Origin: a virus | Length of the DNA stretch: 48,954 bases | Direction: 5' to 3' (one strand) | Virus record (IMG/VR): IMGVR_UViG_3300022539_000516 | In this document: piece by piece, positions 13,046 to 45,159 of the stretch | Position numbering within the stretch: position 1 is the stretch's first letter | How the letters are laid out: every line of letters starts with the position of its first letter | The notes under the pieces: generated by a model | What the model was told of the DNA's origin: nothing | The model's input: only the letters and a program-made list of their open reading frames with translations | Databases searched by the model: none | Program-made: the position numbers and the translations under genes

Positions 13046-13867
13046 ATGTCAAAATTAAGAGTTGTGTATAAAGGAGTAACTGGTCAACTTGATTCTGATT
13101 TAGAAGAAATAGTAGGCGAAGAATATAATTATGGTTATACTAATGTAGTAATTGGTCAGAGAGAATTAGAATGGCATTATATTAGTTCTAATATAGCAAA
13201 AGAAGCAAAGAAAGAAATTAAGAGTAGATTTCCTTATATTATAGTTAAAATACTACCTGATGTTAAAAACAATCCTAAAAGATGTGAAGGATTAATAGAT
13301 AAAATGTTTAGAACAGTACAGATGAAAGGATATATATCTGATGCATTATCTGTTGCTGAAGAATTAAAAACTCCAGTTAGAGATAAATGTGATAATTGTG
13401 ATAAGCTAATAATGAGATATACACCAAGACCTATTTTTGGATTGTTTTGCAGTGAAAAATGTTCTCAAGAAAAAAGATTAGAAGATTCAATGGAATTAAA
13501 AGAAACAAGGGAAGCAATTAAAAGAGCAAAAGGAAAAGAAAACCCAAGCCCAAGGAGGTTTGAAATGTATAGAGAGCGTCCGGGATATTATAGAAGAAGT
13601 AGATTTAATCCTGCTCCAAAGAAGCTGACAAATGCTGAAATAGTAAAAAGATGGAAGATGTTTGTTTTAGATATGATAGCATGGTATGAAGACATAGGTA
13701 CAGTTGAGATTATAGATAAAGATAGATTTGAGAAATCTCTTCTTAGATTTATATTGGGGCCAGAAGGAGTACAGGAACTTGGTACAGATTGGTTAAGAGG
13801 GAGTAGACAAATAGAAGACCATCCCAGAAAATGGGGAGCAAGGTTTAAAGAAGGTTATGGAGGATGA
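13046..13867 (+). CDS. Modular hypothetical protein (NP-delimited)
   Basis: KNNP, KENP and RFNP junctions; CxxC..FCSEKC zinc motif; modules shared with 18229 and 29482. Confidence 0.65.
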   Translation: MSKLRVVYKGVTGQLDSDLEEIVGEEYNYGYTNVVIGQRELEWHYISSNIAKEAKKEIKSRFPYIIVKILPDVKNNPKRCEGLIDKMFRTVQMKGYISDALSVAEELKTPVRDKCDNCDKLIMRYTPRPIFGLFCSEKCSQEKRLEDSMELKETREAIKRAKGKENPSPRRFEMYRERPGYYRRSRFNPAPKKLTNAEIVKRWKMFVLDMIAWYEDIGTVEIIDKDRFEKSLLRFILGPEGVQELGTDWLRGSRQIEDHPRKWGARFKEGYGG

Positions 13868-18228: not shown

Positions 18229-20151
18229 ATGAAAGAGAAAATCTTATCTCAAGATGTAGATATGATATTGTTTCATATAAAGTCTGCTAAAGATTTTCTG
18301 AAGCTTCCACACAAAACCGGGCCTACATTAAGACAAATATGGAAAAAGTATAGTAAAGCGTATAATTTGTATGTTAAAAGTCTTCCTGAAATAGATTCTC
18401 ATCCAAGACATGAAACGATAGTTAAGGAAATAAATAGTTTAATGGATGAGGTTAAAAAACTTGGTATGTTCAGAGAAAATCCATCGCATAAAATACAAAA
18501 TGTACCCGATTCACTATGTAATAAATGTCATCAAAATTGGGATGATGAATGTAGAGCTTTTCAATTACCCCGTTCAAAAGCAGAAAGAGAATTTAAATTA
18601 GAAGGAGAACCTCTATGTTTAAAAAGTTACGAAAGTAAGGTTTTAAAAAAAAGACTTAAAACAAGGGGGAATAAAATGATTGGTAGATACGAGAGGTTAG
18701 GAAAGTATGGTAGAAGGAGAAATCCAATAGACTATTCTGGAGCTTGGGATGCTATGGTTGACCAGAGACCTCAAGTATTACGGAAAATATTTCGTGAAGA
18801 ATATAGAATGAGAAGTTCAGATATAACAGAAATATTTAGATACTATTATAGAGATTTAGATTCGGATACAAAAAGAACTGCCAGAAGAATAATTGATGAT
18901 GTTCGTGGAGGAAGGAGAGAAAATCCTTCTTACAAGATATGGATGGAATTATCTTATACGCAAAAAGCAGAGATAATTAGACAAGCATTGGATAATTTAA
19001 GGGTTTCATTGCTAATGTATAGAAAAATTGAAGACTTAGCATTTACAGATTGGGAAAGTTTACCAAACGATATTAAATCCGAAGTATCAAAAATTATATT
19101 ACAGAAGATAAAGAAAAATCCTTGCTATGAATCAAGACGTAATGAAGATATGTTGCAGTTAGCAAACAAAGCGTTGGAGTCCTGTAAGTTTCGTGGTCAT
19201 AGAATGGGTAATTTCCATAAGACTGGGGAACACACGGCGTATGCGAAATGTGAGAGATGCGGAATGGAAGTTGATATAAATACCAAACCTTTACCTAATG
19301 AAATAGATATTAGCGGTGAAGCAGTGGCACTTAGTTGTAGAAGGAAGGTGTCAAGACGTAATCCAGAGAGTATAGTATTAGAAGTTTCTTATGACCCTAA
19401 ACTATTTGTGGCTGCTCCGTTGGCATTAGATAAAAAACTAGAAAAGATTGTTGGAAAACATAGTTCTGGTGGTGGCATGGGATTTGGAGGAAGAGATATA
19501 AATTGGTATGATTTAGATTTAAAAGAAGCTATAGATTTAAAACAGAAAATTGAGAAATCATTTCCAAAATTTATAGAAACAGGACAGATGAAAGTCAGGA
19601 TAGATAGGGATGTAGAAAACCCTAATTATCCATCAAGACATAATTCAAAGAGATGTGAAAATGCTTCAACAACGGGTAGTAATATAGGAATTCCTCAATG
19701 TTTTAATAATATAGCAAAATTTAAAGTAGTTGTTAAATATGATGGAGAAGAAGATACTCTCTATTTGTGCCAAGATTGTATGGAGACTTTAAGAAAAGAT
19801 GCAAGAAAACATGGATATTCAGTTAGTAAAAATAAATTATCAGAAACTAACCCCGGCCCCCGTGGTGGAGTAACAGAAGTCCAATCATTTTTATTTGACA
19901 GAGATTTATTTACGGTCAAAAAGGCAAAGAAGTGGCTCAAAGACCATGGACATAAATATGGAACGATGACAAAAAGTGGAGAAAGAGCGAATTATTACCA
20001 ATTTCCTCAATTCAGTTCCGAAGAAAAATGGATAAGGGGATTCAGAGTTGTTGATAAGTTTAAAAAAGGCAGGACTTATATACATTTTCCAGAAGGTATT
20101 AAAGTAAGAGTAGCAATAGAAAAAGGTGCACCAAGGTTAAAAAGGAGGTAA
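18229..20151 (+). CDS. Large modular polyprotein-like protein (about 8 NP/RN-delimited modules)
   Basis: RENP, RRNP, RENP, KKNPCYESRRN, RRNP, VENPNYPSRHN and ETNP junctions; several Cys/His zinc-binding-like modules; terminal VQSFLFDRDLFTVKKAKKWLKDHG module. Confidence 0.7.
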   Translation: MKEKILSQDVDMILFHIKSAKDFLKLPHKTGPTLRQIWKKYSKAYNLYVKSLPEIDSHPRHETIVKEINSLMDEVKKLGMFRENPSHKIQNVPDSLCNKCHQNWDDECRAFQLPRSKAEREFKLEGEPLCLKSYESKVLKKRLKTRGNKMIGRYERLGKYGRRRNPIDYSGAWDAMVDQRPQVLRKIFREEYRMRSSDITEIFRYYYRDLDSDTKRTARRIIDDVRGGRRENPSYKIWMELSYTQKAEIIRQALDNLRVSLLMYRKIEDLAFTDWESLPNDIKSEVSKIILQKIKKNPCYESRRNEDMLQLANKALESCKFRGHRMGNFHKTGEHTAYAKCERCGMEVDINTKPLPNEIDISGEAVALSCRRKVSRRNPESIVLEVSYDPKLFVAAPLALDKKLEKIVGKHSSGGGMGFGGRDINWYDLDLKEAIDLKQKIEKSFPKFIETGQMKVRIDRDVENPNYPSRHNSKRCENASTTGSNIGIPQCFNNIAKFKVVVKYDGEEDTLYLCQDCMETLRKDARKHGYSVSKNKLSETNPGPRGGVTEVQSFLFDRDLFTVKKAKKWLKDHGHKYGTMTKSGERANYYQFPQFSSEEKWIRGFRVVDKFKKGRTYIHFPEGIKVRVAIEKGAPRLKRR

Positions 20152-20153
20152 AA

Positions 20154-20462
20154 ATGAGAAGGCCAAAATATAGTATGTATAATCCTGATAAACACAAACC
20201 AAAAGTTTTAAGAAAAATAAAGGCTAAGGTAGGTTTGATTGTTGAAGTAAGTATTAGCACTAAACAGGCAGAAAGTCTTAGTCCTGACGAAGTAGAAGAG
20301 ATTTTTATAGATAAAGCAGGTAATGAAATAGCAGAAATACTAGAAAATGCAACTGGTTGGGATATATATGGAAGTGATTTAGTAAATGAAGGTCTTGTAG
20401 AAGTAATAGAAACTAATGTAGGAGTAAGAAAGAAAAAGATTAAAGAATCCTCATTGGCTTGA
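20154..20462 (+). CDS. Hypothetical protein with leader MRRPKYSMYNP
   Basis: AGGAGG RBS; ORF track. Confidence 0.6.
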   Translation: MRRPKYSMYNPDKHKPKVLRKIKAKVGLIVEVSISTKQAESLSPDEVEEIFIDKAGNEIAEILENATGWDIYGSDLVNEGLVEVIETNVGVRKKKIKESSLA

Positions 20463-21167: not shown

Positions 21168-21524
21168 ATGTTATTGCGAATGGTTTTGTTGATTGGTGGT
21201 GTAATTTTGGCATTTAATTTTGTGAAAAAGAAGATGGAAAAGGAACAAACTCAACTACCTAAATTTTCTAGAATTACTTCAGTTGAGCAGGCATTGAAAT
21301 CAAAATGGGTAACAAAAGAAGCAAAAGCTTTAATAAGGTTATATAAAAGATTTCCAGAAAAAATGGGTAGTGGACTTTCTGTGCATGGTAAATTGTTGAA
21401 AACATTAAAAACTAAAGATGTGAGAGCAATCAAAACACAGATGCTTGATATAGGGACTAGAAGTGAAAGAAAAATTCTTGTATTTGAAAAAGAGCCATCA
21501 TTCAAAACGTATGTAAAAATATAG
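21168..21524 (+). CDS. Membrane-anchored paralog family member
   Basis: TM + KKK; RITSVEQALKSKWVTKEAKALI. Confidence 0.65.
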   Translation: MLLRMVLLIGGVILAFNFVKKKMEKEQTQLPKFSRITSVEQALKSKWVTKEAKALIRLYKRFPEKMGSGLSVHGKLLKTLKTKDVRAIKTQMLDIGTRSERKILVFEKEPSFKTYVKI

Positions 21525-24325: not shown

Positions 24326-24516
24326 AAAATATCCCCATGTTAAATAGAAAGTTTGTAGTTACTTTCAGAGATTTTATTTATTCTATGAATTTAGATATAG
24401 ATAATATTGGAGAAAAAGAAATAGAAATATTTATTTATTCAAAAACCATTGAATTGTCAAAATGGTTAAGAAGTTCTTTATCTGTATATAAAGAGCAAAT
24501 ACACAAGGAGGAATAA
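24322..24516 (+). CDS. Hypothetical protein
   Basis: ATGA overlap with the upstream gene. Confidence 0.45.
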   Translation: MKNIPMLNRKFVVTFRDFIYSMNLDIDNIGEKEIEIFIYSKTIELSKWLRSSLSVYKEQIHKEE

Positions 24517-24638
24517 TGGATGATAGACTAAAAAGAGCATTACAGATAGCGGCAGGTGTAGCAGTATCTAATTTTATAGCATGGTATTTTATCATCCTGC
24601 CATTGTTTGATAGGGACAAGAAACAAATAGAGGAGTAG
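24516..24638 (+). CDS. Small single-TM protein (40 aa; not in the ORF track)
   Basis: AAGGAGG RBS; MDDRLKRALQIAAGVAVSNFIAWYFIILPLF. Confidence 0.55.
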   Translation: MDDRLKRALQIAAGVAVSNFIAWYFIILPLFDRDKKQIEE

Positions 24639-27132: not shown

Positions 27133-28212
27133 ATGATGAGAAGATGTAGAGCGAATAGATTTGCAACAACAAAAGATAGACTGTATGAGTGTCAAGAGTG
27201 TGGCAAACAAGAGGTACACAGGACGAATCATACAGGACAGACATATCCTCACTGTGGTTATTGTAATAAAACGACTACATGGGAATATATCAGGGACATC
27301 GATTGGGATAAGGATAAAGGTATTTATTCCCAATTATCGCCGGGGTCTGTTTCAAGGAAAATAAAATTTTACAGGAAGACTAACTCCAGAAGAAATCCTA
27401 CAAGATGGATTACAGATACAACTGGAGAAGTAGTCTGTGCTGTATGTGGAAGACCTAAAAGAGGTAGAACAAAATGCTGTCGAGTTGCGCCTTCCGTGTC
27501 TTTTGAAAGGTTTGTTGAAAGATATTTTCCCGGAGCACAGATGAATGACCCGGAGGATGAAAATTATGTATCAGGAGCAACAGCTAGAGAATTCTATGAA
27601 GATTATAGATTAAGCAATTGTAGAAGTTTATCGGAATATATAAAAGAGACGCAGACTACTCTACCATCGGATATAGATGAAATAGATTCAGATATAGCAG
27701 AAGAAGAGGAAAGAAAAATTAAGAAATTACATAGGAGATTAGAAGGTGAAGGAGTCGAGTTTGTTGAAAGAAATCCAAGATGTAGATACAGAAGAAATGC
27801 AAAAAAAGGAGAAGAACAACGGTTTGCAGAATGGTGGAATAAGGCATCATTCGATGATAGGTTGGATGTTTTTAGAATAGCTTGTCCATCAAAACCGTCG
27901 TCATATGTTGTAGAAGATTGGTCTAATTTGCCTGTATTAATTAGAACTAAATTGATAACGATAAGGATGAGGTCTAAAGAAAATCCTTGTTATTCAAGAA
28001 GAAATATAACAGAAGAAGATATAAGACGACATTGTGGGACAGGTCGTATGAATCCAGAAATGGAGTTTATTCAGGTAGATAAATGGGGTAAGATATTAGC
28101 TGAATATACTTTTGAGCAATTATACGATTATCAAAAAGAAAAATATGCAGATATGGAGATAGATGAAGAAAGAAAATTTACCGGGACAACATTTCTTCAA
28201 AGAGTAAAATAA
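27133..28212 (+). CDS. Modular polyprotein-like protein with zinc-ribbon modules
   Basis: Leader MMRRCRAN; RRNP, ERNPRCRYRRN, KENPCYSRRN and RMNP junctions; CxxC pairs. Confidence 0.7.
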   Translation: MMRRCRANRFATTKDRLYECQECGKQEVHRTNHTGQTYPHCGYCNKTTTWEYIRDIDWDKDKGIYSQLSPGSVSRKIKFYRKTNSRRNPTRWITDTTGEVVCAVCGRPKRGRTKCCRVAPSVSFERFVERYFPGAQMNDPEDENYVSGATAREFYEDYRLSNCRSLSEYIKETQTTLPSDIDEIDSDIAEEEERKIKKLHRRLEGEGVEFVERNPRCRYRRNAKKGEEQRFAEWWNKASFDDRLDVFRIACPSKPSSYVVEDWSNLPVLIRTKLITIRMRSKENPCYSRRNITEEDIRRHCGTGRMNPEMEFIQVDKWGKILAEYTFEQLYDYQKEKYADMEIDEERKFTGTTFLQRVK

Positions 28213-30142: not shown

Positions 30143-30850
30143 ATGGGTTGGGGACTCAGAAGAGTAGCAATAGATGAAGTGCTTGCCAACGAAGTAGCGC
30201 AAGCAGACCCACCAACTTTCGCAGACTGGGATTATAACAGAGAGTATGATTTAGGTGCGGAAGAACTTCCGTGGTGGGCAGGATTGGTAGGAATAGGACA
30301 ATGGGGAAGAACACCCAGACGAAGACGTGCTGTGATGCCAGTAGACCCGGAGACTTTTGCGGAGGTTGGACAAGTAGACCCACCAACTTTTGCGGGATTT
30401 AGATTCCCTAAAGTAATACCAAGAATGCCTAGAGGAGTACCAGGCGGAAGATTGCCTGGGGGAATAATAGTAAGACCACCTCGAATGCCAAGGATACCTG
30501 CAAAGATGATATTGAGCACAAGATATTCCATAATCGCTAATGTGCGGGATACTATGATTGATAAATTCGAGAAATATCTTCTAAAGGGTGGCGGAAGGAT
30601 AATGATGTTCAATGATGTCGGAACAGGATATGAAGTCGGCGCATATAATGTTACTCCGGCGATTTTGAATATTTTTAAGAGAGCTGGAATTCCTGTAAAA
30701 ATAGTATTCAAGTATTCAGTTCCTATTAAACCGAAGATGAGAATTGGAGTTCCTAGAAAACCAGTACAAGAAAGAGTTTATGGTGGTTCTAGTTGGCGAG
30801 CACCTGTTGCACGTGTACAAAGAGCATACGCAAGAGCAATCACTAGATAA
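30143..30850 (+). CDS. Putative virion protein with acidic GxG-bearing N-terminus and basic Pro/Arg-rich C-terminus
   Basis: AGGAGG RBS; GIGQWG; duplicated EVxQxDPPTFA. Confidence 0.5.
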   Translation: MGWGLRRVAIDEVLANEVAQADPPTFADWDYNREYDLGAEELPWWAGLVGIGQWGRTPRRRRAVMPVDPETFAEVGQVDPPTFAGFRFPKVIPRMPRGVPGGRLPGGIIVRPPRMPRIPAKMILSTRYSIIANVRDTMIDKFEKYLLKGGGRIMMFNDVGTGYEVGAYNVTPAILNIFKRAGIPVKIVFKYSVPIKPKMRIGVPRKPVQERVYGGSSWRAPVARVQRAYARAITR

Positions 30851-31766
30851 TCTCTTTTATCTTTTTTAGTATGTCTGGCATTCTTGCTTCAGCGTAGACT
30901 TCGGTGGTAGTAACCGATGCATGTCCTAAAAGTTTCTGTATATATTGTATTTGAACGCCTTTAGATACAAGGTCAGTTGCGAAGGTATGCCTTAGTCTAT
31001 GGAGAGTAAAATCAACGCCTGAATCTTCACGCAACTTTTTTGCCAACTTAACAAGCCATGAAATCTTGTTTACTTTAGCTCTGGTGGGGAATACATAGTC
31101 GTTATTGGATAACATGCCAATATATTTTTTCAATTCATTTTGGGCAGATTTGGAAGTGATGAATGTGATTCTTTCTTTGTTACCTTTTCCTTTAACTAAT
31201 AATTGCAAAACATTGTCAACTGTAGTAAAATCTTTTTTCCGAACTTCAAGTACCTCACTTGCTCGGAGACCACCATATAGCATTAAAAGTATAGCTATGC
31301 GGAACTTTGGTTCAACTTCTGTAGCTAAAATTGTAACTACATCTTTTTCTTCTAAGTATCTTGGGTGTCTTTTGGGAACTTTGAAGAAATATTTTCGTTT
31401 TACTTCAAGAAAAGGATTTTCAGCTTCTTTGCGGTTTTCGTAGTAAGAAAGAAATGACCTGACAGCACATATTATTTGGTTTAATGTAGCTGGAGATAAA
31501 TTGTCCTCTCGTTCTTTACGGGTTAGAAAATCTCTGAATTTCCAGATATCTTCAAGTTTTAGTGTTTTCCAGTTGTAATACTTTCCTTCTGGATGGATAT
31601 GTTTGATAAAATAAACAAAATAAGTTCTGAGTCTACTTCTATAGTTTTGTTGTGTATTTAAATTAGGAATATCATTGATGAAGGTATCTACTTTTAGTTC
31701 AAGTTCTGTGGGTTCTTCTTTCTTTTCTTCTGGTGGATTGTCTGAAATCTTTCTAAGTTTAAACAT
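30843..31766 (-). CDS. Tyrosine recombinase/integrase (XerC/D-like)
   Basis: SAM-like N-domain (LSPATLNQIICAVRSF); catalytic set GLRASE, KGKGNKER, HRLRHTFAT, LLGH and TTEVY. Confidence 0.93.
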   Translation of the reverse strand: MFKLRKISDNPPEEKKEEPTELELKVDTFINDIPNLNTQQNYRSRLRTYFVYFIKHIHPEGKYYNWKTLKLEDIWKFRDFLTRKEREDNLSPATLNQIICAVRSFLSYYENRKEAENPFLEVKRKYFFKVPKRHPRYLEEKDVVTILATEVEPKFRIAILLMLYGGLRASEVLEVRKKDFTTVDNVLQLLVKGKGNKERITFITSKSAQNELKKYIGMLSNNDYVFPTRAKVNKISWLVKLAKKLREDSGVDFTLHRLRHTFATDLVSKGVQIQYIQKLLGHASVTTTEVYAEARMPDILKKIKEII

Positions 31767-32251: not shown

Positions 32252-33808
32252 ATGAACCTCTACGCCTTTGATTGCGACGGTACTCTTGAACACGGTGGAG
32301 GACCGATAGGATTAAGAACTCTAAAGAGATTAGAGAAACAGGGACATATTGTTGTAATTGTTTCTGACTCTCTGAGCTGTAAGTGTTTGTGGAATACTGT
32401 TTTTCCATATATATCAGGCGCAGAGGAAGGATTAAGTAGAACTAAATCTAGAAAGAGAGCATTATTGAGAACAAAAAAAGAATACGAAGATTGTGATAGG
32501 TATATCTATGTTAGTGATGACCCCGGAGACCATAAGATAGCTGATAAGACAGGGTATGAATATATACATCCGGATGATTTTGCAAGACAGAATCCTAGGA
32601 GAAATATAGAAAAGAAAGAAAAAGAAATAATACAATCATATATAAAAAGATGGACAGAATATATTTCTTATGAAGACGTATTCGAATCATCAACAGAACA
32701 TGGATTTTATGGTTTCATTGATAAATATGGCAAACTATTATGGAGAAAGCGTGAACATGGAGATTTTATACGAGGACTTCTTCGTAAAATTTTAGATAAA
32801 GAACATGTAGATTATGCAGACTTGCCTGAGTTATATGAAGTATTCTTTAGAAAAACTAAACTTATAAGAGCAGATTTTATACCAGGAGAAGAATTTGATA
32901 TATCAATATGGGGCAAAATAAATATAAATCAAATTAAGACTATTGTAAAATTTGCCGATGCATGTAATAAATTCTATTTTGATATATTTTTGCAATCTGA
33001 AAATGTAAGCGTAGGAGGTGAAGGTTTTTATAAGTTTATAGATAAAATGAGAAAATATGATTTGATACCCAGAACATTTGTATTGAGAAATCCTAGGAGA
33101 AATAATAGCAATAAAAGAAAAATCTTAGCTATTGCCAGAAGAGTAAAGACTCTTCTTAGAAAGACTGATAAGTTTGTTGATTGTATAGTAATATCTGAGA
33201 CTCTGACATATTATTTACGAAAGGCTGGTTTTAACGCCAAAACAATAGAAGGTTGTTTTATAACGGATTATTTGCCAATAAAGTATAAAAAAATAGCGCA
33301 AAGTTATAGAAAAAGATTTAAAAGAAAACCATGTTATTTATATAAAAATGACCATTGGTGGGTAGAAGTTGATGGAGATATAATTGATTTAGACGCAAAA
33401 CAATTTGATTTATTAATGAAAGTAAAAGCTAAGAGTATTGAGTATCCAGCTAATCCTGAACATTATGGAACATTGAAGAGATATACTAAACTTGATGGGA
33501 ATTATAATTATGTAATTAAAGAAAACCCAAGGAGGAATAAAATGAGACACAGAAGAAATGTAAAATTTGAGGTTAAACGGGACGAAAAAGGAACATGGGG
33601 AATATGGGACTACGAAATAGATGGTTGGTATACGAATAGAATACCTACCAGAGAACAAGCAGAAATAGAGAAGAAAAAAATTATTGCGGAAACAGTAGTA
33701 TGGGAAGGTGTGCGTGATAGATTTGATGCCTTTACAGAGGAACTCGTTGATGAATTTGGGGTTTCAATGTCAGAGATATTACAAATAATTAAAGAAGTGA
33801 TGCCATAA
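32252..33808 (+). CDS. Four-module polyprotein-like protein: HAD-like hydrolase, repeated GxIxxxG domain, transglutaminase/papain-like Cys-His-Asp module, small module
   Basis: FDCDGTL (HAD motif I); QNPRRN, RNPRRN and ENPRRNKMRHRRN junctions; DCIVISETL..HWWVEVDGDIIDL..QF. Confidence 0.75.
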   Translation: MNLYAFDCDGTLEHGGGPIGLRTLKRLEKQGHIVVIVSDSLSCKCLWNTVFPYISGAEEGLSRTKSRKRALLRTKKEYEDCDRYIYVSDDPGDHKIADKTGYEYIHPDDFARQNPRRNIEKKEKEIIQSYIKRWTEYISYEDVFESSTEHGFYGFIDKYGKLLWRKREHGDFIRGLLRKILDKEHVDYADLPELYEVFFRKTKLIRADFIPGEEFDISIWGKININQIKTIVKFADACNKFYFDIFLQSENVSVGGEGFYKFIDKMRKYDLIPRTFVLRNPRRNNSNKRKILAIARRVKTLLRKTDKFVDCIVISETLTYYLRKAGFNAKTIEGCFITDYLPIKYKKIAQSYRKRFKRKPCYLYKNDHWWVEVDGDIIDLDAKQFDLLMKVKAKSIEYPANPEHYGTLKRYTKLDGNYNYVIKENPRRNKMRHRRNVKFEVKRDEKGTWGIWDYEIDGWYTNRIPTREQAEIEKKKIIAETVVWEGVRDRFDAFTEELVDEFGVSMSEILQIIKEVMP

Positions 33809-33818
33809 AGAATTAAAT

Positions 33819-34754
33819 ATGCAAAATTCAACAATATACAAAACATTCAACTTTGCACTCAATCTTGTTGAGGAACAAGGTTTTCCTATAAGCAACTACT
33901 ATTTACCTGAAAATAAAGTTGGAAAGTTTAGCATTAAACACAGATGGTATAAAAAGGAGGAAATTTTAGATGTTGTTAATATGAAAATGGCTATATTAAC
34001 AGGAGCAAAACCGTCAAAAGTAAAACTTGATAAAGACTGGATGGCACTTAATCTTTTTAAGGATAAACAGGGATTATTGATGTCGACTCACCCTGTTGAG
34101 ACATTTACTCATTTATATCCAATATATGAATCTTGGGGAGATGTTCTTGTTGGAGGATTAGGATTGGGATACATTGTTAATGAGATGGCTAAGAATGGTT
34201 CAGTAGATTCAATAGTAGTTATTGAAAAAGAGAAAGATATTATTAAATTAGTAGAAGATGGATTAATGAATAGTATAGATGATATAAACGATGATATGTT
34301 TAATGATAGAGACGACGAGGTAGAAGTAACTATAATACATGATGATATATTTAATTTTGTCAAAAGAACTAAGATGAAATTCGATTTTATGTACTTTGAT
34401 ATATGGTATGAAACAGAACAAGAGGATTTTTATGATTATGTTCTTCCTTTGAGGATGTTATCAAGAAGATTGTTAACTCATGGAGATAGTATAAATGTAC
34501 GAAAATATAATATTATATGTTGGATGGAAGAAATAATGAGAGGAGTATTATTGATACATACAGTAGCTACAAAAATGATGAACGAATTAAGTAATAAGTA
34601 CAATGCCGTTTTGAAAGCTGGTAGATTTACTAAAAAATATCATAGACTTTTTATTGATTTTGTTGACGAATATGGATTAGAAGAATTAGAAGATATGTCA
34701 GCAGAAGAATATCAAAAATTAGCTAATGAGTTTGTGTTGAATTATAAGGTGTAA
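33819..34754 (+). CDS. SAM-dependent methyltransferase, spermidine-synthase-like fold
   Basis: GDVLVGGLGLGY, VVIEKEKD, IHDDIF and FDFMYFDIW motifs. Confidence 0.75.
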   Translation: MQNSTIYKTFNFALNLVEEQGFPISNYYLPENKVGKFSIKHRWYKKEEILDVVNMKMAILTGAKPSKVKLDKDWMALNLFKDKQGLLMSTHPVETFTHLYPIYESWGDVLVGGLGLGYIVNEMAKNGSVDSIVVIEKEKDIIKLVEDGLMNSIDDINDDMFNDRDDEVEVTIIHDDIFNFVKRTKMKFDFMYFDIWYETEQEDFYDYVLPLRMLSRRLLTHGDSINVRKYNIICWMEEIMRGVLLIHTVATKMMNELSNKYNAVLKAGRFTKKYHRLFIDFVDEYGLEELEDMSAEEYQKLANEFVLNYKV

Positions 34755-34755
34755 A

Positions 34756-36315
34756 ATGGAGCGCAAAAAGAATTTTAAGTATTCACCACGTGAAGTTGAA
34801 AGTGCTTTGTATGGTTGTTGGGACGAAGTATTTACTATATATTCTCCAGAGCCAATAGATATTGCTTTAAAAAGGCATTTGTATTTTTCCGGTTGGATTA
34901 ATTTAGATGGTACATTATTAAGCAGTAAAGGAGAACATTCAGAAGGATTAAAATGTATACTTAGGGAACTTGGAGAAAAAGAGCAAAATGAATTTTATAT
35001 GTATGGTGACAATATAATAGATTTGTTCATGCAAGTGACTGGAATTATTAGAATGAAGTGGGATGAAAAAGATGATGTATCAAGAGTTTTGATGAGCATA
35101 GAAAATAAAATTACAAAAGAACAATGGTATACAATTAGAAGAATATATAAAGATTTTGATGAGTTTAATTATGAAATAAGTTATATCAATAAATCGGGTT
35201 GGGGGAGTAATTTGTGGAAACTAAAAGCATTTTTGGAGAAATATGATATGATAATAGATTCTAGCAAACAAAACCCAAGGAGGAATAAAATGAGACATAG
35301 GATAAATCCGAGAGTAAAGGATAAAATGAGCAAAAAAGAGATAAAGGCATTAAAGGACGTATGGGAGACATTTAGAGATACTGGTGAGAAAATGGCAATA
35401 AGAAATAAAACTGAATATTTGCGAAACTATAAAAGTTTAGAACGGAAGAAACTTGTGACTGTATATCAATGGCAATATACGTGGAGTATTGGATTAACAG
35501 AGAAAGGAAAAGAAATTGGTGATATATTATTTTTGTACTCTAATACGAGTAAAAATCTACAAAACCCAAGGAGGAATAAAATGAGACATAGAAGAACGAT
35601 AGGCAATCCTACCAGGACTGAAAAGTATTATAGTATTATTAGAGAAGAAGGAGAAAGAATGATTATACAACCTCCTCTTCGAGAAGATGGTTTTCATATG
35701 TTAGTTAATGAAAAGTCCAGTATAGCATACTCAACAGGAGACAAACGTGACCTGATTGCTGATATGCAAGACCTTGTTGATAATCGTGGATGGGAATGGG
35801 AAAGTAGAGGTAGAAAGAGGAGAAATGTGCAAAAGGTTTCCATCAAGACTGCCCGGAATGAGTATGAAGAACCTCTTGAGCCGGACGAAGAAGATGTTAT
35901 CATCAGCTATACAGATGAAATATTTAGTGGGTCTGAGTATATAGGTAAAGCTAGTGATTGGGAAATCCAGGTTAAGTTGATTCAGGAGTGGATGAAAGGA
36001 GAAGGTTTTTATCCCAACGTGTGGCAGCTAAGTGACCATGGGAATTATCATCTAATTAGAGACTTTCCGCATCCGGAAAGTAGAGGTGGAAGATATAAGA
36101 GAAATCCTTCCAGAACAACAGAAAAATCTTTGCGTGAGTGGGTTCAACATTTAGCAGACTCAGGTGTAAATATTACAATAGAATGGGCTTATGGACAACC
36201 CAGATGTTATAGTAAAGAAGGTCGTGGGCTGAAAGAATTATCTCCACGACTTCCAACTGGACAGATGGCAATATGGCTTGACGGGTTTACGAAAGGGTTA
36301 AATGTAGCAGAATAA
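34756..36315 (+). CDS. Five-module polyprotein-like protein
   Basis: Leader MERKKN; two NPRRNKMRHR junctions, then KRRN and KRNP; first module is the repeated GWIxxDG domain; second is winged-helix-like. Confidence 0.72.
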   Translation: MERKKNFKYSPREVESALYGCWDEVFTIYSPEPIDIALKRHLYFSGWINLDGTLLSSKGEHSEGLKCILRELGEKEQNEFYMYGDNIIDLFMQVTGIIRMKWDEKDDVSRVLMSIENKITKEQWYTIRRIYKDFDEFNYEISYINKSGWGSNLWKLKAFLEKYDMIIDSSKQNPRRNKMRHRINPRVKDKMSKKEIKALKDVWETFRDTGEKMAIRNKTEYLRNYKSLERKKLVTVYQWQYTWSIGLTEKGKEIGDILFLYSNTSKNLQNPRRNKMRHRRTIGNPTRTEKYYSIIREEGERMIIQPPLREDGFHMLVNEKSSIAYSTGDKRDLIADMQDLVDNRGWEWESRGRKRRNVQKVSIKTARNEYEEPLEPDEEDVIISYTDEIFSGSEYIGKASDWEIQVKLIQEWMKGEGFYPNVWQLSDHGNYHLIRDFPHPESRGGRYKRNPSRTTEKSLREWVQHLADSGVNITIEWAYGQPRCYSKEGRGLKELSPRLPTGQMAIWLDGFTKGLNVAE

Positions 36316-36321
36316 ACAGGT

Positions 36322-37926
36322 ATGAATAGAAAAATTATAGATGCAGAAAAATATATGAAGTCGGAGTTGGGTGAAGCCGATGGAATAGATGGTATGTTTT
36401 TTCTCTCCCCAAGCGGTAAACTTTTTAATGTTGGAGGATTTCATTGGCCTTATGCTAGAGAAATTGTAATATGGCTTGAGAAACAGGGTCATAAATTTAA
36501 AACAGAAAGTAAGGCACTTAAATTAGAGTCAGCTTCTTCGATAGCAAGAAAGGCACATGGCAGAAAAAAAGTTGATAGGGATAGATTAGATATAATTTTT
36601 TCTGAAGAATTAAATATGATAAGGATTTATAGTTCTTCTAGAAGTGAATTTGATATAGAAATAGCTTCAACGATAACTAGAAAACAATTTGATACTATAA
36701 AACGTCTTGTAAATGCTGGTTTTAATAGAACAAATTTGTATTATGATATATATTTAAGAAGAAAATCTACGGACGATTATAGAGACAGAAGTGGAACTGG
36801 GTTTTTAAATTTCGTAAAAGCATGTAATAGTTTAGAATTAGTTGATGGTGGAGTAATGGTAAGAGCAAATCCAAGGAGGTATAAAATGAAACATAGAAGA
36901 GTAATAAATAATCCTGATAAGACTGATAAATATTATAGTATTGTTAGACGTAGAGGAGAAAGAATTATTTTACGTAAGAAAAAACAGTCCATTTATGTAT
37001 TATATAGTGAAGGACATGATAAAAATTTCTGGATGGGGTCTAAAGATACAATGATTGCACGTATGCAAAAATATGTAGATGAATCAAAATGGAGATGGGA
37101 AAATAAAGGTTCATCTTGTTTTGTCAAAGTACAGGATAAAAAAATGGAAAAGTTTAGGGCGCAAGCATGGGTGCATCCTGAATATAGTGATGATTATATG
37201 GTGAACTTTACTATAGAAGCAGAAAATTATGAAGAAGCCGCAATTATAGTGCGAGACTGGTTAAAAGAGCAAAAATCTCAAATGTTAAATGATTTTAGAA
37301 TAGAAAAAGGAACATGGGAAGAAATTGAAGATACTGGAATTGATTATGAACAAAACCCAAGGAGGAATAAAATGAGACAAAAAAGGCATGCAAAATGTAT
37401 AGGTTGTGGAAAACTTGCGGTTATACCGAAAGACAAGACAAAACCTTATGGTTGGATAATAACGCAGGATATGGGTCACGACCCCGACTATCGTTGCGAT
37501 AAATGTAAAAAGAGATGGCAAAAAGGTGAAAGAAAACTATCGAAACAAGAGGTATCTGAATTAAAGTTAATTCAACATAAAATGAGACACAGAAGAAATA
37601 CAGGAGATATAAAAAAATTACTAGATATAGGTATGAATATAATTGATACAATGTTTTCTATTCTTAATAAAACAAGTGAAGAATTGATAAAAGTAGGTAT
37701 TAATCGGGCAGAATTTAGTATTCCATCTTTTGAGGACTTATATGATTCACATTATATACAACCAGAGGATTTGACAGTAGAAGAATGGGATAGAATATCA
37801 GATGAAGAGATAGAGGATGTAGGAAAAAGATTATGCAATTACGCGAAAGAAAAAGCAGAGGAACTACGGTTTACCATAAAGGAAGGTTATTCTTATCCTT
37901 ACATTAATATTTATTATTCAATTTAA
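36322..37926 (+). CDS. Multi-module polyprotein-like protein
   Basis: ANPRRYKMKHRR, QNPRRNKMRQ and KMRHRRN junctions; first module is the repeated domain; one CxxC..CxxC module. Confidence 0.72.
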   Translation: MNRKIIDAEKYMKSELGEADGIDGMFFLSPSGKLFNVGGFHWPYAREIVIWLEKQGHKFKTESKALKLESASSIARKAHGRKKVDRDRLDIIFSEELNMIRIYSSSRSEFDIEIASTITRKQFDTIKRLVNAGFNRTNLYYDIYLRRKSTDDYRDRSGTGFLNFVKACNSLELVDGGVMVRANPRRYKMKHRRVINNPDKTDKYYSIVRRRGERIILRKKKQSIYVLYSEGHDKNFWMGSKDTMIARMQKYVDESKWRWENKGSSCFVKVQDKKMEKFRAQAWVHPEYSDDYMVNFTIEAENYEEAAIIVRDWLKEQKSQMLNDFRIEKGTWEEIEDTGIDYEQNPRRNKMRQKRHAKCIGCGKLAVIPKDKTKPYGWIITQDMGHDPDYRCDKCKKRWQKGERKLSKQEVSELKLIQHKMRHRRNTGDIKKLLDIGMNIIDTMFSILNKTSEELIKVGINRAEFSIPSFEDLYDSHYIQPEDLTVEEWDRISDEEIEDVGKRLCNYAKEKAEELRFTIKEGYSYPYINIYYSI

Positions 37927-37956: not shown

Positions 37957-38364
37957 ATGAAAGAATTTGACAGGAAAAAATTAGTTTATAAGATAACAAA
38001 AACTTTAGAGTTATTTGATAAGTTAGTGAAACGATATAAAATAAAAGAACTCAGAAGAAAAGCAGGATATGAAGTAACTGATGTAGAATTATTTTTTTAT
38101 TCAAATCGAAGATTTTGGGATACAACCACACTAGAAACAGGAGTTATAGAAATAGATAAAAATTTTGTGTATTATAATAAAATGGACGACATAGAACAGG
38201 TAATAAAACATGGACTTGCTCATCTGATAACTCCCGTTGAAAGTCCTGCACATGGAGATGAATTTCGTAAAAGTCTTAGAAAATTAAGGGCATCGCCGCA
38301 CGTTTTTGGTTATGATGGAGAAAGGCATTTTTGGCTTCGTTATGATAAGGATAGAGAAGAATAA
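37957..38364 (+). CDS. SprT-like metallopeptidase paralog with degenerate HGLAH motif
   Basis: VIKHGLAHLITP..HGDEF; the catalytic Glu is replaced by Gly. Confidence 0.7.
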   Translation: MKEFDRKKLVYKITKTLELFDKLVKRYKIKELRRKAGYEVTDVELFFYSNRRFWDTTTLETGVIEIDKNFVYYNKMDDIEQVIKHGLAHLITPVESPAHGDEFRKSLRKLRASPHVFGYDGERHFWLRYDKDREE

Positions 38365-38630: not shown

Positions 38631-38744
38631 GTGGCGAAAGAAGATAAAGGCAACCTTTTAATCTGGGGTACGATACTAATAGGAGCGTTTGTTATTGCAT
38701 TAATTGTCGGAAATAAACAAGAAGCGGAAGCTGAACAAAAATGA
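38631..38744 (+). CDS. Small single-TM protein (37 aa; not in the ORF track)
   Basis: GGGGAG RBS, GTG start; LLIWGTILIGAFVIALIVG; stop overlaps the next ATG. Confidence 0.55.
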   Translation: MAKEDKGNLLIWGTILIGAFVIALIVGNKQEAEAEQK

Positions 38745-39160
38745 GAACAGAAAAACAAATACAGAAACTTTTTGGAAGATTAGTAAAGTGTTGTAAGATA
38801 GAAGAGATTAGAAGACTTGCAGATTGGGTTAAACCTACAGATGAGATAATCCCCCAATGTTTTATTGTAGAAAAAGATGTGATTAGAGAATTAGTTTTAG
38901 AAAAAGGAGGGATGACTCCTTTATCTCTTTTGATGGAAGATGTTTGGGCAACAGCTGACCATTATGAAGCAATTATTTGTATTGATGAAGAAATTGCTTT
39001 GAATGAGGTACGTGTGAAGAATGAAGGACTTAAATCTATAATTATACACGAACTGGCGCATTTAATAACTCCACCACATTTTGAATCACATGGTAAAGAA
39101 TTCAATAGAAACTTAGATATTTTAAAAAGAATATGTAAAAAAATAAAAATGAGAGGATAA
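38741..39160 (+). CDS. SprT-like HExxH metallopeptidase
   Basis: IIIHELAHLITPPHFESHGKEF. Confidence 0.75.
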   Translation: MRTEKQIQKLFGRLVKCCKIEEIRRLADWVKPTDEIIPQCFIVEKDVIRELVLEKGGMTPLSLLMEDVWATADHYEAIICIDEEIALNEVRVKNEGLKSIIIHELAHLITPPHFESHGKEFNRNLDILKRICKKIKMRG

Positions 39161-39161: not shown

Positions 39162-39581
39162 ATGCCGGATGCTTTAGAAGAAGCCAAAAGAATTTTGAAT
39201 AAGAATATAGATGAAGTTTTACCTTTAATAGAAAATATTAGAGAGAAAATAGAGGAAATTCTTGAATACATATACGAAAAAATGCCAACAGAAAATCCGG
39301 ACGAACTTATGCATCTTTTGTTGGATGCAAGCATGGATAGTCTTTTTGCGCTAGTGAAAGCATGTGATAAGTTAGAAGAAGATGATACTGTAGATGATGA
39401 CAAGGTAGATTTTATCATGTATTGTATATCAGCATTTGGTACTATAGCTTTTTTGTGTGAAACTTCAGATGTCATAGAGAAATATATGGAATCTATGATA
39501 GAAGTTTTAAAAAGGGTTTGTAAGGATAAAATAAGAGATGTAAAACTTGGCAAAGGAGATAGTGAGATTTATTATAAATAA
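39162..39581 (+). CDS. Hypothetical helical protein
   Basis: GAGG RBS; ORF track. Confidence 0.55.
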   Translation: MPDALEEAKRILNKNIDEVLPLIENIREKIEEILEYIYEKMPTENPDELMHLLLDASMDSLFALVKACDKLEEDDTVDDDKVDFIMYCISAFGTIAFLCETSDVIEKYMESMIEVLKRVCKDKIRDVKLGKGDSEIYYK

Positions 39582-40084
39582 TGCGAACATATAAAGAAGT
39601 AAAATTAGCTACAGAGAAATTTTTTAATAAAGTAGTCAAAAAAGCAAAAATAGTAGAAGAACGTAAAAAATTGGGATTCACCAAAAAGGCTATTCCTAAA
39701 TTAAGATTTACAAGATTGTTAGGAAAGTGGCTTTTTGCGGCAGACTACGATTTAGGTGTATTAATAATAAATCCAGAAGTTCTGAAAGGATTTACAAGAA
39801 CACATATGGGAGGATATGTTGAATTTGCTGAAGTTATATCTCCAGCATTTAAAATAGTAGTTATACATGAGATGGCTCATTTAATTACTCCAAATAAATA
39901 TAAAAGTCATGGTAGAAAGTTTTTACAAAATTTAGCTGAAATTATGGGAAGAATGGAGTATACAGAAATGGCTATCAAAGAATACCTAGGAGAAGAATAT
40001 GAATTGAAGAAAAGATATAAAAAAACAGAAGATATTATGGAGAAAAAAGTGTTTGAAAAATTAAGAAGGCTTGGAAAAGTTTAG
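39581..40084 (+). CDS. SprT-like HExxH metallopeptidase
   Basis: FAADYDLGV; VVIHEMAHLITP..HGRKF. Confidence 0.75.
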   Translation: MRTYKEVKLATEKFFNKVVKKAKIVEERKKLGFTKKAIPKLRFTRLLGKWLFAADYDLGVLIINPEVLKGFTRTHMGGYVEFAEVISPAFKIVVIHEMAHLITPNKYKSHGRKFLQNLAEIMGRMEYTEMAIKEYLGEEYELKKRYKKTEDIMEKKVFEKLRRLGKV

Positions 40085-40580: not shown

Positions 40581-40954
40581 AGCTAAAAATAGATAAAAGA
40601 ATAAAGCGACCTCCATTTTGTTTTGACAAAACTAACAAAGTTATATATTCAACGTATGATAAAGAAGATTTTGATAAAGGTTGGAGTTTTTTCTGCTACG
40701 GAAAACTATCGAAACTACATGTATTTAGGGAAAGAAAAGTAGAACATAGAAATGATATGTGTCATTGTTATTATACTCCGCTGAAGGGAATGATTAAATT
40801 TTATATTAATATAGAAGATATATTGGGAGAAACTCAAGCTGGTATTGCTGTAATAAATAGATTGTCAAGACCTCATTGTCCAGAATGTGGAGAGGATATG
40901 TATAAAATAGTGAAATATGAGTGTCCAAGGTGTATATTAAACAAGGAGGGATAA
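40571..40954 (+). CDS. Cys-rich hypothetical protein
   Basis: C-terminal CPECG..CPRC. Confidence 0.55.
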   Translation: MGMKLKIDKRIKRPPFCFDKTNKVIYSTYDKEDFDKGWSFFCYGKLSKLHVFRERKVEHRNDMCHCYYTPLKGMIKFYINIEDILGETQAGIAVINRLSRPHCPECGEDMYKIVKYECPRCILNKEG

Positions 40955-40955
40955 A

Positions 40956-41222
40956 ATGTCTTCTATATACATATGGACTAAAGGTGATAGAAGTGTTGGT
41001 ATACGGCCTGGGAAAGCAAAGCTAGAAACCGACTTTAGAGACTTTGAAGATTTTGACGAAGAAACCCGTGAAGATATTAAAAACAGATTAGGAAAGCTTA
41101 TAGAAGATATGTATGATGATGTAATAGATGTAATATATTTTGACGACGAATGTCCCAACTGTGGAGATAGATTAAACAAAAAAGGAATATGTAGAAAATG
41201 TGAAGCATATACGCATCGATAA
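40956..41222 (+). CDS. Hypothetical protein with C-terminal zinc ribbon
   Basis: GDRSVGI; CPNCG..CRKC; AGGAGG RBS. Confidence 0.6.
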   Translation: MSSIYIWTKGDRSVGIRPGKAKLETDFRDFEDFDEETREDIKNRLGKLIEDMYDDVIDVIYFDDECPNCGDRLNKKGICRKCEAYTHR

Positions 41223-41233: not shown

Positions 41234-42676
41234 ATGATAAAAGGTTTAAGAAAGAATCCCGACAAGACTGTACGTAAATTTATTACTACAATGTATCGGA
41301 TAGGTGAACCAGAGGATTGGAACGAGAAATTCTTTGTAGCGACAGAAGGCAGTATTGACGGGTGGATACGTTACTTGGTTAGTACTGTTGAAAATCAGTG
41401 GGATTTACTTGACGAAAAGGTGTATAAGTTAACAGTTTCAAAGTTCTATTTACCGTTTACTAATATTTCAGTAAAGAGTGTTGGTGAGTTACAAAAAAGA
41501 TATGATAGAGGAGAAATATCTGATGAAGATATTAGAGGAGTATATCCTGAAGAAACTGGACTACAACATCTAGAACAATATGAGGTAATACCAGAAGATA
41601 TAGTTTCTAAACATGAGTTATCTAGAAAAGAAATAGAGAGTTTTGCGGAAGGAAAAAAATCAAGAAAGAATCCTGCAACAAAATCTATTGTCAAACAAGC
41701 CGAAGAACTTCTATATGAAAAATATGGCGGGACAAAATTGAGAGATGTATATAATGCTGCTTGGATAGCTCCTAGCGGTAAATTATTAGGAAATTTAGCA
41801 GACCACTATGATTCTGCTTATGAAGTTTTGAAAGATTTAGGAATATATGCGGATGAGGAAGAGAAAGACCTTTTTAATTTTTTAAGACTGGGTTTTATTC
41901 GTTTTAACCTTACTGGGATTGAATTAGATATAGAAATTAGAAGTAAAATAACACAGAAACAATTCAAAAAAATTGAGGAAATAGTAAGATATGACAAAAT
42001 ATATGGTGAATTTTATTTCGATATTACCATGCCAGAATTAGAGTTATTTATAGATGGTAAAGGATATGAAAATTTTTTGAAGGTAATAGATAAATATAAT
42101 TTGGTAAAAGCTTCAAGAAAGAATCCCATAGTCAAAACATCAATATCCTTTAAAACTTTTCAGAGATTGAATCCTAAAAAAGAATTGATTGAAAGAGCTG
42201 TAGATTATTTTGGTATTACTGAATCTGGTAGAGCAGCAGGATTTATACTGGATGATGGTAGACTGTTAGATTTCAGTGGATACAAACAGGGGTTTGGTGT
42301 TAGAACAAAAAGACATTTTGTCCACGACCGCATTACTATTGTAATGGAAACAAAAGATAAAATGATTAGTAATAACGTAAAGCTTGCGTTTTTTCAATGG
42401 CAGACAGGTGCATTGAGACTACTTTTGGATGTGTATGCATCCGATTTGGCTATATCCATTGAATTTCCACAGGAGATAACAGGTTATCAAATATTAAGAG
42501 TAAGGAATTTAGTTAGAGCATATGGAATAAATTTAGTGTTAGATGTATTTTCTAGAGATTTACAGCCTGGAGAACAGATGTTACTTTATAAAATATTGGA
42601 AGACCCTACGGATAAAGAGATTAATGAACTGTTTCAAAAATATTTTGAGTACAAAAAAGATATAATGGGAGATTAA
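41234..42676 (+). CDS. Three-module polyprotein-like protein (three RKNP junctions)
   Basis: aagaaagaatcc precedes each module; modules 2 and 3 carry AAWIAPSGKLL and AGFILDDGRLLDFSG. Confidence 0.72.
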   Translation: MIKGLRKNPDKTVRKFITTMYRIGEPEDWNEKFFVATEGSIDGWIRYLVSTVENQWDLLDEKVYKLTVSKFYLPFTNISVKSVGELQKRYDRGEISDEDIRGVYPEETGLQHLEQYEVIPEDIVSKHELSRKEIESFAEGKKSRKNPATKSIVKQAEELLYEKYGGTKLRDVYNAAWIAPSGKLLGNLADHYDSAYEVLKDLGIYADEEEKDLFNFLRLGFIRFNLTGIELDIEIRSKITQKQFKKIEEIVRYDKIYGEFYFDITMPELELFIDGKGYENFLKVIDKYNLVKASRKNPIVKTSISFKTFQRLNPKKELIERAVDYFGITESGRAAGFILDDGRLLDFSGYKQGFGVRTKRHFVHDRITIVMETKDKMISNNVKLAFFQWQTGALRLLLDVYASDLAISIEFPQEITGYQILRVRNLVRAYGINLVLDVFSRDLQPGEQMLLYKILEDPTDKEINELFQKYFEYKKDIMGD

Positions 42677-42677: not shown

Positions 42678-43169
42678 ATGGAGATAAAGAAAGTAAGATA
42701 CTTATTCTGGAAATTTATTTTTAAAGCAGAAATAGTAGAACAAAGAATAAAGCTAAGAAAATATCTTTTACTGCCAAGAGTTAAATTGGAAATAAGTAAA
42801 AAAATGTTATCCTTTTGGGGGGATGTAAACTTCAATAAAGGTCTTGTTAGATTGAGTTATTATTTTTTAATTGATAACAAGCAACCAGTAATAGAAAAAT
42901 TGATAACGCATGAATTAGCTCATTTAGTAACTATTAAAACTGGACACCACTCCGGTTTCTATGAAAATCTTAGGAAAATTAGAAAAAAAATAGGTCTTTC
43001 TTCTCTTGACGTAATATTTGGAGATGTTATCGTAAGGACTTATGTCTACGAATATATATGCACAAAATGTAAGAAACAAAGAGATTATTCGTTTATATGT
43101 TGTGGTCGTAGAGCAAAAAGAATAAAAGTTGGAGACATAAAATCAAAATTTACAAGTGTAGGAAAGTAA
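42678..43169 (+). CDS. SprT-like metallopeptidase with C-terminal Cys cluster
   Basis: LITHELAH..HHSGF; YEYICTKC..CCG. Confidence 0.78.
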   Translation: MEIKKVRYLFWKFIFKAEIVEQRIKLRKYLLLPRVKLEISKKMLSFWGDVNFNKGLVRLSYYFLIDNKQPVIEKLITHELAHLVTIKTGHHSGFYENLRKIRKKIGLSSLDVIFGDVIVRTYVYEYICTKCKKQRDYSFICCGRRAKRIKVGDIKSKFTSVGK

Positions 43170-44199: not shown

Positions 44200-45159
44200 A
44201 TGGGTTTAGTAAAAGATACATTGATTTCCATTCGTAATGAAGCGGATGGATTCTCTTTTGGAGAACCTTGGAGATTTAATGAGAAATCTCTGAGTGTTGT
44301 TGTCCCGATTGTGAGAAAAGTCGGAGAAGATGTTAGAAGAGGATATATTACTCTGGCCGAAAGTGAAATGGTTGCCTTGAAAGATACTGGGCAAATTGAT
44401 AAGATTGTAGTAGAAAACAAAGAAGAAAAACCTGTGTATATTGGAGCAGGTGAAATTATGGCAGGAGATACTCAGGCAAGAGCAGTTGTTCGTGGTTATG
44501 TATTAATGCCAAAACAAACAGAAGATATTAAAGTAATGTGTATTCATAGTTCAAGAGGAATTAGTAGTAGTGCCAGCATGGCAACAAAAGGATATGTTCC
44601 ACGTTCTGTAAGAACAAATCTTAGAAGGGGTCAAGGAGAAGTGTGGAATTCTATAAGAGATTCTGGAAATATATACAATATGTCAACATTAAACTATATG
44701 GCATTAGGTGATGTTGATGTACCAAATGCAGAAGAAATTGCAGAATCTTTTAAAGAAAGTGATGATTTGTTTGAAACTAGAGATAAATACAATGAAATTG
44801 TAGAAGATGTTATCAAGAAAATTCCTTTGATTGGTAATCAGGTAGGTATTGTAATTATTGATGCAAAAGGTTTTGTGAGTATGGATGCTTTTGATTTAAA
44901 AGACTCATGGACAGCCATCAGAACTGCAATTACGAAAGGAGCAAGCATAGATATAGCACAGTTCGAAGAGGAGCATGTTTTTGAATACAAACCAGAGATA
45001 GCTGTTCAGAAAATAATGCAAACATTGAGCAAGGATTATTCGGAGAAGATTCTTCACGAAAATGGTTATGAAGTAATAGAATTGACATCCGACGGATTTT
45101 TCGGAGAAGCAGTTGTATTAGATGCAGAAGTCATTCATCTGAGGATAGCAAGGATATAG
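44200..45159 (+). CDS. ARPP-1/DUF6569-like protein
   Basis: IVVENKEEKPVYIGAGEIMAGDTQAR..IKVMCIH..QGEVWNSI matches the family pattern as I recall it. Confidence 0.65.
   Translation: MGLVKDTLISIRNEADGFSFGEPWRFNEKSLSVVVPIVRKVGEDVRRGYITLAESEMVALKDTGQIDKIVVENKEEKPVYIGAGEIMAGDTQARAVVRGYVLMPKQTEDIKVMCIHSSRGISSSASMATKGYVPRSVRTNLRRGQGEVWNSIRDSGNIYNMSTLNYMALGDVDVPNAEEIAESFKESDDLFETRDKYNEIVEDVIKKIPLIGNQVGIVIIDAKGFVSMDAFDLKDSWTAIRTAITKGASIDIAQFEEEHVFEYKPEIAVQKIMQTLSKDYSEKILHENGYEVIELTSDGFFGEAVVLDAEVIHLRIARI

Follow-up and report, generated by a model that had tools for sequence, protein, structure and literature searches.

The stretch of DNA considered here (referred to as the window) comprises 48,954 nucleotides (nt) of a 134,537-bp phage contig, recorded in IMG/VR as IMGVR_UViG_3300022539_000516. 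Almost all of its genes lie on the + strand, and its GC content, taken per 2 kb, ranges from 0.30 to 0.44 (mainly 0.31–0.37). Three long open reading frames (ORFs), designated A, C and D, encode proteins of some 520 amino acids (aa) that are composed of several modules each, and a methyltransferase gene (ORF B) lies between the first two. The modules appear to be joined by a recurring DNA word, AACCCAAGGAGGAATAAAATGAGACA, which is translated into a linker peptide and at the same time looks like the start region of a gene. This word is the subject of the present analysis; all features are listed in Table 1.

The word is 26 nt long and is found in four exact copies on the + strand, while 100 dinucleotide-preserving shuffles, used as the chance level, gave none. 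A variant with 3 mismatches and a half copy are present in ORF D. All copies of the word lie in frame within ORFs A, C and D and are read as NPRRNKMRH (NPRRYKMKH in the variant), and the four exact copies and the variant hold AAGGAGG, a perfect Shine-Dalgarno (SD) sequence, six nt before an ATG that is in frame as well. Identity between copies is limited to about 28–33 nt, outside of which the flanking sequences show no relationship at either the DNA or the protein level, and no inverted repeat was found at any copy. A previous sequence-only reading of the window had described four exact copies, one variant and one partial copy within three long ORFs between unrelated flanks, and had pointed to the coincidence of linker peptide, SD and ATG; all of this was recovered here. 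An assembly artefact was ruled out: the ORF B protein is identical in the assemblies of JGI and Logan, ORFs C and D as called in Logan are identical across the covered parts, and in-frame junctions are kept in a divergent relative.

At real gene starts of the window, AAGGAGG(T) precedes the ATG with a spacer of 5–6 nt. Many of its gene boundaries are coupled, in that the SD falls within the final codons of the preceding gene and the stop within the spacer to the next ATG, and hence many proteins of this phage end in RR, KEV, KEE or KEG. Read in its +2 frame, the junction word yields P-K-E-E-stop(TAA)-A-ATG, i.e. a normal boundary with the same K-E-E-stop end that is found at 24505..24518. The +1 frame yields ..G-G-I-K-stop, with a TGA that overlaps the ATG. 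In frame 0 both stops are avoided, and N-P-R-R-N-K-M-R-H continues into the next module; the word thus equals the ordinary boundary of the phage in the one frame that fuses genes. To judge from the nucleotide sequence, it is no invention of the three ORFs, and is the ordinary coupled gene boundary of this phage in the stop-avoiding frame.

A census of GGAGG-N4-9-ATG in the window returned 35 sites, about 26 of which are gene starts. Six sites are deep internal and in frame, all of them of the junction type, and only 2 of the 35 are internal and out of frame. At the junctions, SD, spacing and context match those of the real starts of the window, and the predicted unpaired probability from −15 to +5 amounts to 0.67; the corresponding values for real SD starts and for 86 other internal ATGs are 0.52 and 0.46. 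As annotated, ORFs A, B, C and D start with a weak SD or none, and these starts look translationally coupled.

The choice of codons points in the same direction. Given the peptide and the codon usage of the window, the exact codons have a probability of about 8e-4 per copy. AGG accounts for 17% of the arginine codons in the window; the first arginine is encoded by AGG in 7/7 copies of NPRRN, and AGG-AGG is used in 5/5 copies in which KM follows. Two further junctions in ORF A carry AATCCTAGGAGAAATA (32591 and 33089), which encodes NPRRN in different codons and lacks the ATG; this word differs from the main one at three positions, each of them synonymous. Copies that are exact to the codon and use the rare AGG require either a constraint at the nucleotide level or a spread of the word as DNA. 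The dual coding, i.e. a linker peptide combined with SD and ATG, is real at sequence level.

The other recurring junction words listed by the sequence-only reading were found again. Besides the two copies of AATCCTAGGAGAAATA, these are AAGAAAGAATCC, which occurs three times (41248, 41662 and 42115) and codes for RKNP, and AAAATCCTTG, which occurs twice (19115 and 27980) as part of KNPCYESRRN and ENPCYSRRN, respectively. Similar internal starts had been proposed at three more sites, with a mixed outcome. At 18665, GGGGGAATAAAATG is a one-base, in-frame variant of the junction word (RGNKM). The pair at 6617 and 6749 was not counted as the same phenomenon, having only a 12-nt word in common and unrelated downstream sequences. 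The 18665 site, in ORF 18229–20151, and a copy in ORF 13046–13867 are further degenerate in-frame members.

With respect to the modules, ORFs A, C and D gave no match above threshold in Pfam, PHROGs and NCBIfam and none in a PDB sequence search, and an ESM Atlas search on module function returned nothing usable. Modules C4 and C5 both belong to widespread families; C4 recurs in many architectures, and homologues of C5 are mainly stand-alone proteins of 66–100 aa, aligning from their residue 2. Hence, the modules are gene-sized units. In an AlphaFold2 (AF2) model of ORF C, the mean predicted local distance difference test score (pLDDT) is 55, with C5 above 94. Its first junction (J1, 172–189) is predicted as a low-confidence coil between helical modules, and the second (J2, 270–280) opens a low-confidence stretch (264–399) right behind a helix (249–263). 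The family of C5 (36109–36315) has the conserved pattern WAYG.PR....SPRL..G....WL, and the model of C5 shows, with high confidence, an alpha-beta-beta-alpha fold. A fold search with the ORF C model gave Z scores below 6 throughout, and the best structural match of C5, T7 gp1.2 (Z 5.4), is too weak for use. A paralogous module, termed G-family, is found in ORFs A, C and D and in ORF 41234 (32606–33100, 34756–35270, 36322–36866 and 41650–42120), and twice in the related protein P0152. Its pattern reads ..W-I-x-x-x-G-x-L-L..H.., ..I-T-x-x-Q.., with the end KYD/N-L/M-I/V-x-NP, and no known family was matched.

Relatives of ORF C were collected by an exhaustive profile-free search (190 proteins), the close ones being P0003, P0004/P0152 and P0001; P0155 was found as a match to ORF A. 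The database records place P0001, P0003 and P0004 each on a 6,293-bp ENA contig (possibly one and the same), and P0152 on a Logan contig. In other searches, GenBank phages gave no blastn or tblastn match, and IMG/VR gave no useful match to the exact word, to a codon-degenerate NPRRNKMRH pattern or to ORF C or ORF B protein queries. Searches of metagenome and GTDB contigs for the codon-degenerate pattern, and of IMG/VR for an SD+MRHRRN pattern, returned chance matches only (high GC, stop codons, non-coding frames).

All comparisons with the relatives were made at the protein level, by pairwise alignment. P0152, P0003, P0001 and P0155 share modules with the window at 66–80% identity, in the company of different neighbours, and all homology breaks of ORFs A and C relative to these only close relatives coincide with NP/RRN junctions. 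C1 and P0152 are 68% identical through QNPRRNK and divergent beyond; the match of A1 to P0155 ends at NPRRN/NPKKRH in the same manner. In P0003, C2 and C4 are adjacent and C3 is absent, with the break between HRR..GNPxRT and KRRN, and past the KRNP of C4 a different module takes the place of C5. In P0001, C3 is flanked by two other modules and bounded by NPRRNKMIHRRN and KHRRN. According to these alignments, C1, C2+C4 and C3 of a single ORF of the window sit in three proteins of the relative. Furthermore, the alignment pairs Met1 of ORF C with the Met at a junction of P0152 (QNPNRNK-M-KHKSN), so that a real start codon in the window is homologous to a junction ATG in the relative. P0152 and P0153 have the C-terminus NPRRIK, and P0001 and P0003 have the N-terminus MRH; from these peptides only, we infer that the NPRRIK end is the word minus one A (AGG ATA AAA TGA, with an ATGA overlap).

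The idea of the sequence-only reading that the words are cassette boundaries which permit shuffling finds support in these comparisons, and the gain, loss or reordering of modules with breakpoints at the repeat, which had been suggested there as a check, was indeed observed among relatives, with every break at a junction motif. At the level of aligned proteins, the data demonstrate that the words mark real module borders, that modules have been reassorted between relatives at these borders, and that boundary and junction interconvert in evolution.

Table 1. Positions of the junction copies, related boundaries and neighbouring genes in the window.
Feature	Position	Strand	Remarks
ORF A	32252-33808	+	518 aa; modules A1 (HAD-like DxDGT, by eye only), A2 (G-family), A3, A4; own start without SD
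ORF B, methyltransferase	33819-34754
ORF C	34756-36315	+	519 aa; five modules, C1-C5
ORF D	36322-37926	+	534 aa; D1 (G-family), D2 (C3-like in part), D3 (zinc ribbon) and D4, four or five modules in all
Junction copy 1	33524..33549	+	ENPRRNKMRH; ATG 33542; A3/A4 border, ORF A
Junction copy 2	35272..35297	+	QNPRRNKMRH; ATG 35290; C1/C2 border, ORF C; homology to P0152 stops here
Junction copy 3	35563..35588	+	QNPRRNKMRH; ATG 35581; C2/C3 border, left edge of module C3
Variant copy (3 mismatches)	36868..36893	+	ANPRRYKMKH; ATG 36886; D1/D2 border, ORF D
Junction copy 4	37354..37379	+	QNPRRNKMRQ; ATG 37372; border of D2 and zinc-ribbon module D3
Half copy	37579..37599	+	KMRHRRN leader, lacking both NPRRN and SD; ATG 37582; D3/D4 border
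NPRRN-only junction	32591..32606	+	AAT CCT AGG AGA AAT, no ATG; A1/A2 border; homology to P0155 stops here
Second NPRRN-only junction	33089..33104	+	same 16-nt word as at 32591; A2/A3 border
Degenerate in-frame copy	18658..18678	+	ORF 18229-20151; AAAACAAGGGGGAATAAAATG, RGNKM
Degenerate in-frame copy	13538..13567	+	ORF 13046-13867; ENPSPRRFEM, CCAAGGAGG-N6-ATG; ATG 13565
Canonical boundary	40943..40958	+	AAC AAG GAG GGA TAA A ATG; ATG 40956; upstream gene ends NKEG*; 1 mismatch in 16 nt to the junction word
Canonical boundary	24505..24518	+	AAG GAG GAA TA-ATG; ATG 24516; upstream gene ends HKEE*
Canonical boundary	20142..20156	+	AGG AGG TAA AA ATG AGA; ATG 20154; ORF 18229 ends KRR*, next gene opens MRR
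Boundary of the usual SD/stop-in-spacer type	21155-21170
Xer-like tyrosine recombinase	30843..31766	-	divergent from the module array; reaches the cut-off of no curated family
Three small SprT-like (HExxH) paralogues	37957-38364, 38741-39160, 39581-40084	+	directly 3' of ORF D
Fourth SprT-like paralogue	42678-43169		3' of G-family ORF 41234

We consider it the best explanation, with a probability of roughly 0.6, that the word is the standard coupled gene boundary of this phage, read in frame as a module junction. In a coupled boundary, AAGGAGG would form part of the final codons of the upstream gene, followed by a spacer rich in A, usually with a stop, and by the ATG; in the junction version, the upstream frame would miss the stop and enter the ATG in frame. 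Modules of 60–180 aa from accessory genes, some of which are stand-alone genes in other genomes, would thereby be strung into ORFs of 520 aa through a NPRRNKMRHRRN linker that is basic and probably disordered. For the additional idea that ribosomes also start at the internal SD and ATG, by which downstream parts would be made alone as well as in the fusion, we would give even odds. The 28–33 nt of common DNA might act as homology for reassortment, which we hold to be a little short of an even bet. A more far-reaching version of this model regards the word as a selected standard connector that combines a basic NPRRNKMRHRRN linker with a full SD and ATG and yields both polyproteins and lone parts. 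An indel of 1–2 nt in the A-run would flip it to a stop/start boundary and back, its identity over about 30 nt would allow reassortment within and between genes, and Asn-Pro might add a point of cleavage. In this full form the proposal appears doubtful.

Several observations weigh against the boundary model or parts of it. The relatives known so far belong to one lineage, and breaks at linkers could mean the survival of viable chimeras, and not recombination guided by the word. Upstream elongating ribosomes would partly occlude an internal SD. Two database proteins open at internal ATGs (P0002 from 35581, P0157 from 37372), but were rejected as evidence of initiation: repeated 31-mers in the region are confined to the copies at 35272, 35563 and 37354, Logan assemblies presumably use k=31, and a Logan contig of 1,817 nt corresponds to the 1,818 nt between two of these copies. 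Hence, the starts of both proteins represent breaks of the assembly at the repeat. Asn-Pro (NP) is invariant in 15/15 junctions of the window and the relatives, and constitutes their most conserved part. The dipeptide is 2.56-fold enriched in proteins of the window (60 observed, 23.4 expected), mostly as [RK][RKE]NP at a spacing of 65–150 aa and without SD, in ORFs 126–860, 13046–13867, 18229–20151, 27133–28212 and 41234–42676; ORF 18229 alone has seven occurrences of the [RK][RKE]NP type without SD-like codons. An SD-based model explains neither the invariance nor this enrichment, which indicates a role at the protein level, and NP looks like a phage-wide delimiter of protein modules.

This leads to the possibility that the junctions are sites of protein processing, at which fused precursors would be cut at or near Asn-Pro, with the SD-like codons being secondary. 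Candidate cutters include the neighbouring SprT-like metallopeptidases, a virion protease, or an asparagine-driven self-cleavage of the N-P bond. Such a mechanism best explains why NP is invariant and widespread while RR and M vary (NPNRN, NPKKR, NKKGH), and would be in line with the finding that the two NPRRN words differ at three positions, each synonymous. YscU/FlhB (NPTH) and reovirus mu1 are established cases of self-cleavage between N and P. In YscU/FlhB, however, an asparagine peptide lyase acts on NPTH in a folded FlhB-C-type domain; the motif here is NPRRN, lies in a predicted coil and not in a folded turn, and Asn-Pro is also common as helix N-cap and as a linker element. We know of no protease with a specificity for an NPRRN-type motif. 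Four SprT-like HExxH paralogues (motif HE[LMI]AHLITP; SprT-like/YgjP-like) lie directly 3′ of ORF D and ORF 41234 and may be considered candidate processing peptidases. For polyvalent phage proteins, release by peptidase domains of this kind has been predicted (PMC5512222), which counts in favor of processing as well; such proteins, with their associated zincin peptidases, are the precedent. On the other hand, processing leaves unexplained the codon-exact identity over 26 nt, the rare AGG-AGG, the 6-nt spacing to the ATG and the match with canonical boundaries, and appears unlikely to be the main role of the junctions.

Alternatively, the words may be neutral fossils, meaning that indels of 1–2 nt fused genes, that SD, ATG and linker are simply tolerated, and that the identity between copies stems from recent spread or gene conversion. 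The word is indeed only 1–2 nt away from canonical boundaries, a difference that shifts the frame, and decayed forms exist: 32591 and 33089 lack the ATG, 37579 lacks the SD, and P0152 has NPNRN and NKKGH. However, AAGGAGG is still perfect in the five full copies, and it is the genuine starts of these ORFs that have a weak SD or none, which is the opposite of decay and weakens this reading. In addition, a relative whose shared modules are only 66–80% identical has kept in-frame junctions, at positions that are not orthologous. Neutral persistence is therefore regarded as improbable. That the SD-like sequence acts on elongating ribosomes, either by a pause for folding at domain borders or by a +1 slip into UGA that releases the upstream module, would fit the AGGAGG-AAU-AAA-A-UGA geometry readable from the sequence, its resemblance to the prfB site (SD, 3 nt, slip codon, UGA) and the predicted location of the junctions between domains, but is hardly credible, as SD-induced pausing is disputed and the 0-frame codon behind AAA is AUG and no slow stop codon.

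Among known systems, the closest functional analogue of a gene boundary read as a junction are the promoter-early stem-loop (PeSL) cassettes of T4-type phages, which mediate modular shuffling and in which variable accessory ORFs are bordered by copies of a short conserved expression signal (PMC2839356, PMC4122927). In both cases insertions, deletions and replacements break at the motif (here at the protein level), and modules keep their own expression signal after shuffling. A PeSL, however, is an intergenic promoter with a terminator hairpin, while the junction word is an SD and ATG within an ORF, lacks an inverted repeat and is translated into a linker. Having neither transcription signal nor hairpin, the junction falls outside the PeSL definition. 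The strong, well-spaced SD before an in-frame ATG is reminiscent of in-frame nested genes such as T7 gene 4A/4B, lambda C/Nu3 and phiX174 A/A*; genome-wide cases have been described in E. coli (bioRxiv 10.1101/520783). In this class, the SD lies 5–9 nt ahead of an in-frame start codon, and a full-length protein and a shorter C-terminal one can result. These known nested genes are single, gene-specific sites, whereas the word is found, by sequence only, at five to eight borders of three to five genes and at recombination breakpoints.

Polyvalent proteins of phages and conjugative elements (PMC5512222) likewise bring together several small, unrelated domains whose combinations change, and are associated with zincin/SprT-type peptidases. 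Such proteins are characterized by 2–15 distinct domains per polypeptide and a variable architecture, and ORFs A, C and D, with four to five modules each that are reassorted in relatives, agree with this description. None of the hallmark domains of polyvalent proteins (MPTase, ArdC-N, ParB-like, methylase and others) was recognised in the three ORFs by Pfam, PHROG or NCBIfam. In contrast to that class, the peptidases are here encoded by separate adjacent genes, and a conserved linker bearing an SD has not been described for it.

A tyrosine recombinase that is divergent from a promoterless cassette array with a recurring junction also calls integrons to mind. In contrast to integrons, the junctions have no attC-like inverted repeat and the cassettes are fused in frame. 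The recombinase scores 78.9 bits against the integron-integrase model TIGR02249 (cut-off 265), and its best model, XerA-like, is below the cut-off as well. Given the missing inverted repeats and a score far below the IntI cut-off, an integron-like mechanism was ruled out. Among the papers searched, none uses NPRRN in the present sense.

Accessory regions of phages are thought to evolve by the shuffling of small genes. The joints are seldom visible in such regions; in this phage, the joint can be read and counted as an explicit sequence, and it shows gene boundaries and domain linkers converting into each other. This suggests a simple route by which a phage may build and re-sort multi-domain proteins while each part stays separately expressible. 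If internal initiation is true, annotation of such ORFs as single proteins is incomplete, and the word would be a natural design for modular expression.

Further features were noted elsewhere in the window. ORF 8425–11559 (1044 aa, no Pfam match) contains long exact direct repeats at 8932–9423 and 10024–10125, with offsets of 273 and 270 nt and a third copy about 1.1 kb away. Exact short tandem duplications are found at 1–64 (39-nt period) and, within ORF 21573–22172, at 21737–21798 (42-nt period). An ARPP-1 domain (E 1e-28) was recognised in the protein encoded at 44200–45159, and a LAGLIDADG/HTH homing-endonuclease-like gene lies at 2109–3065.

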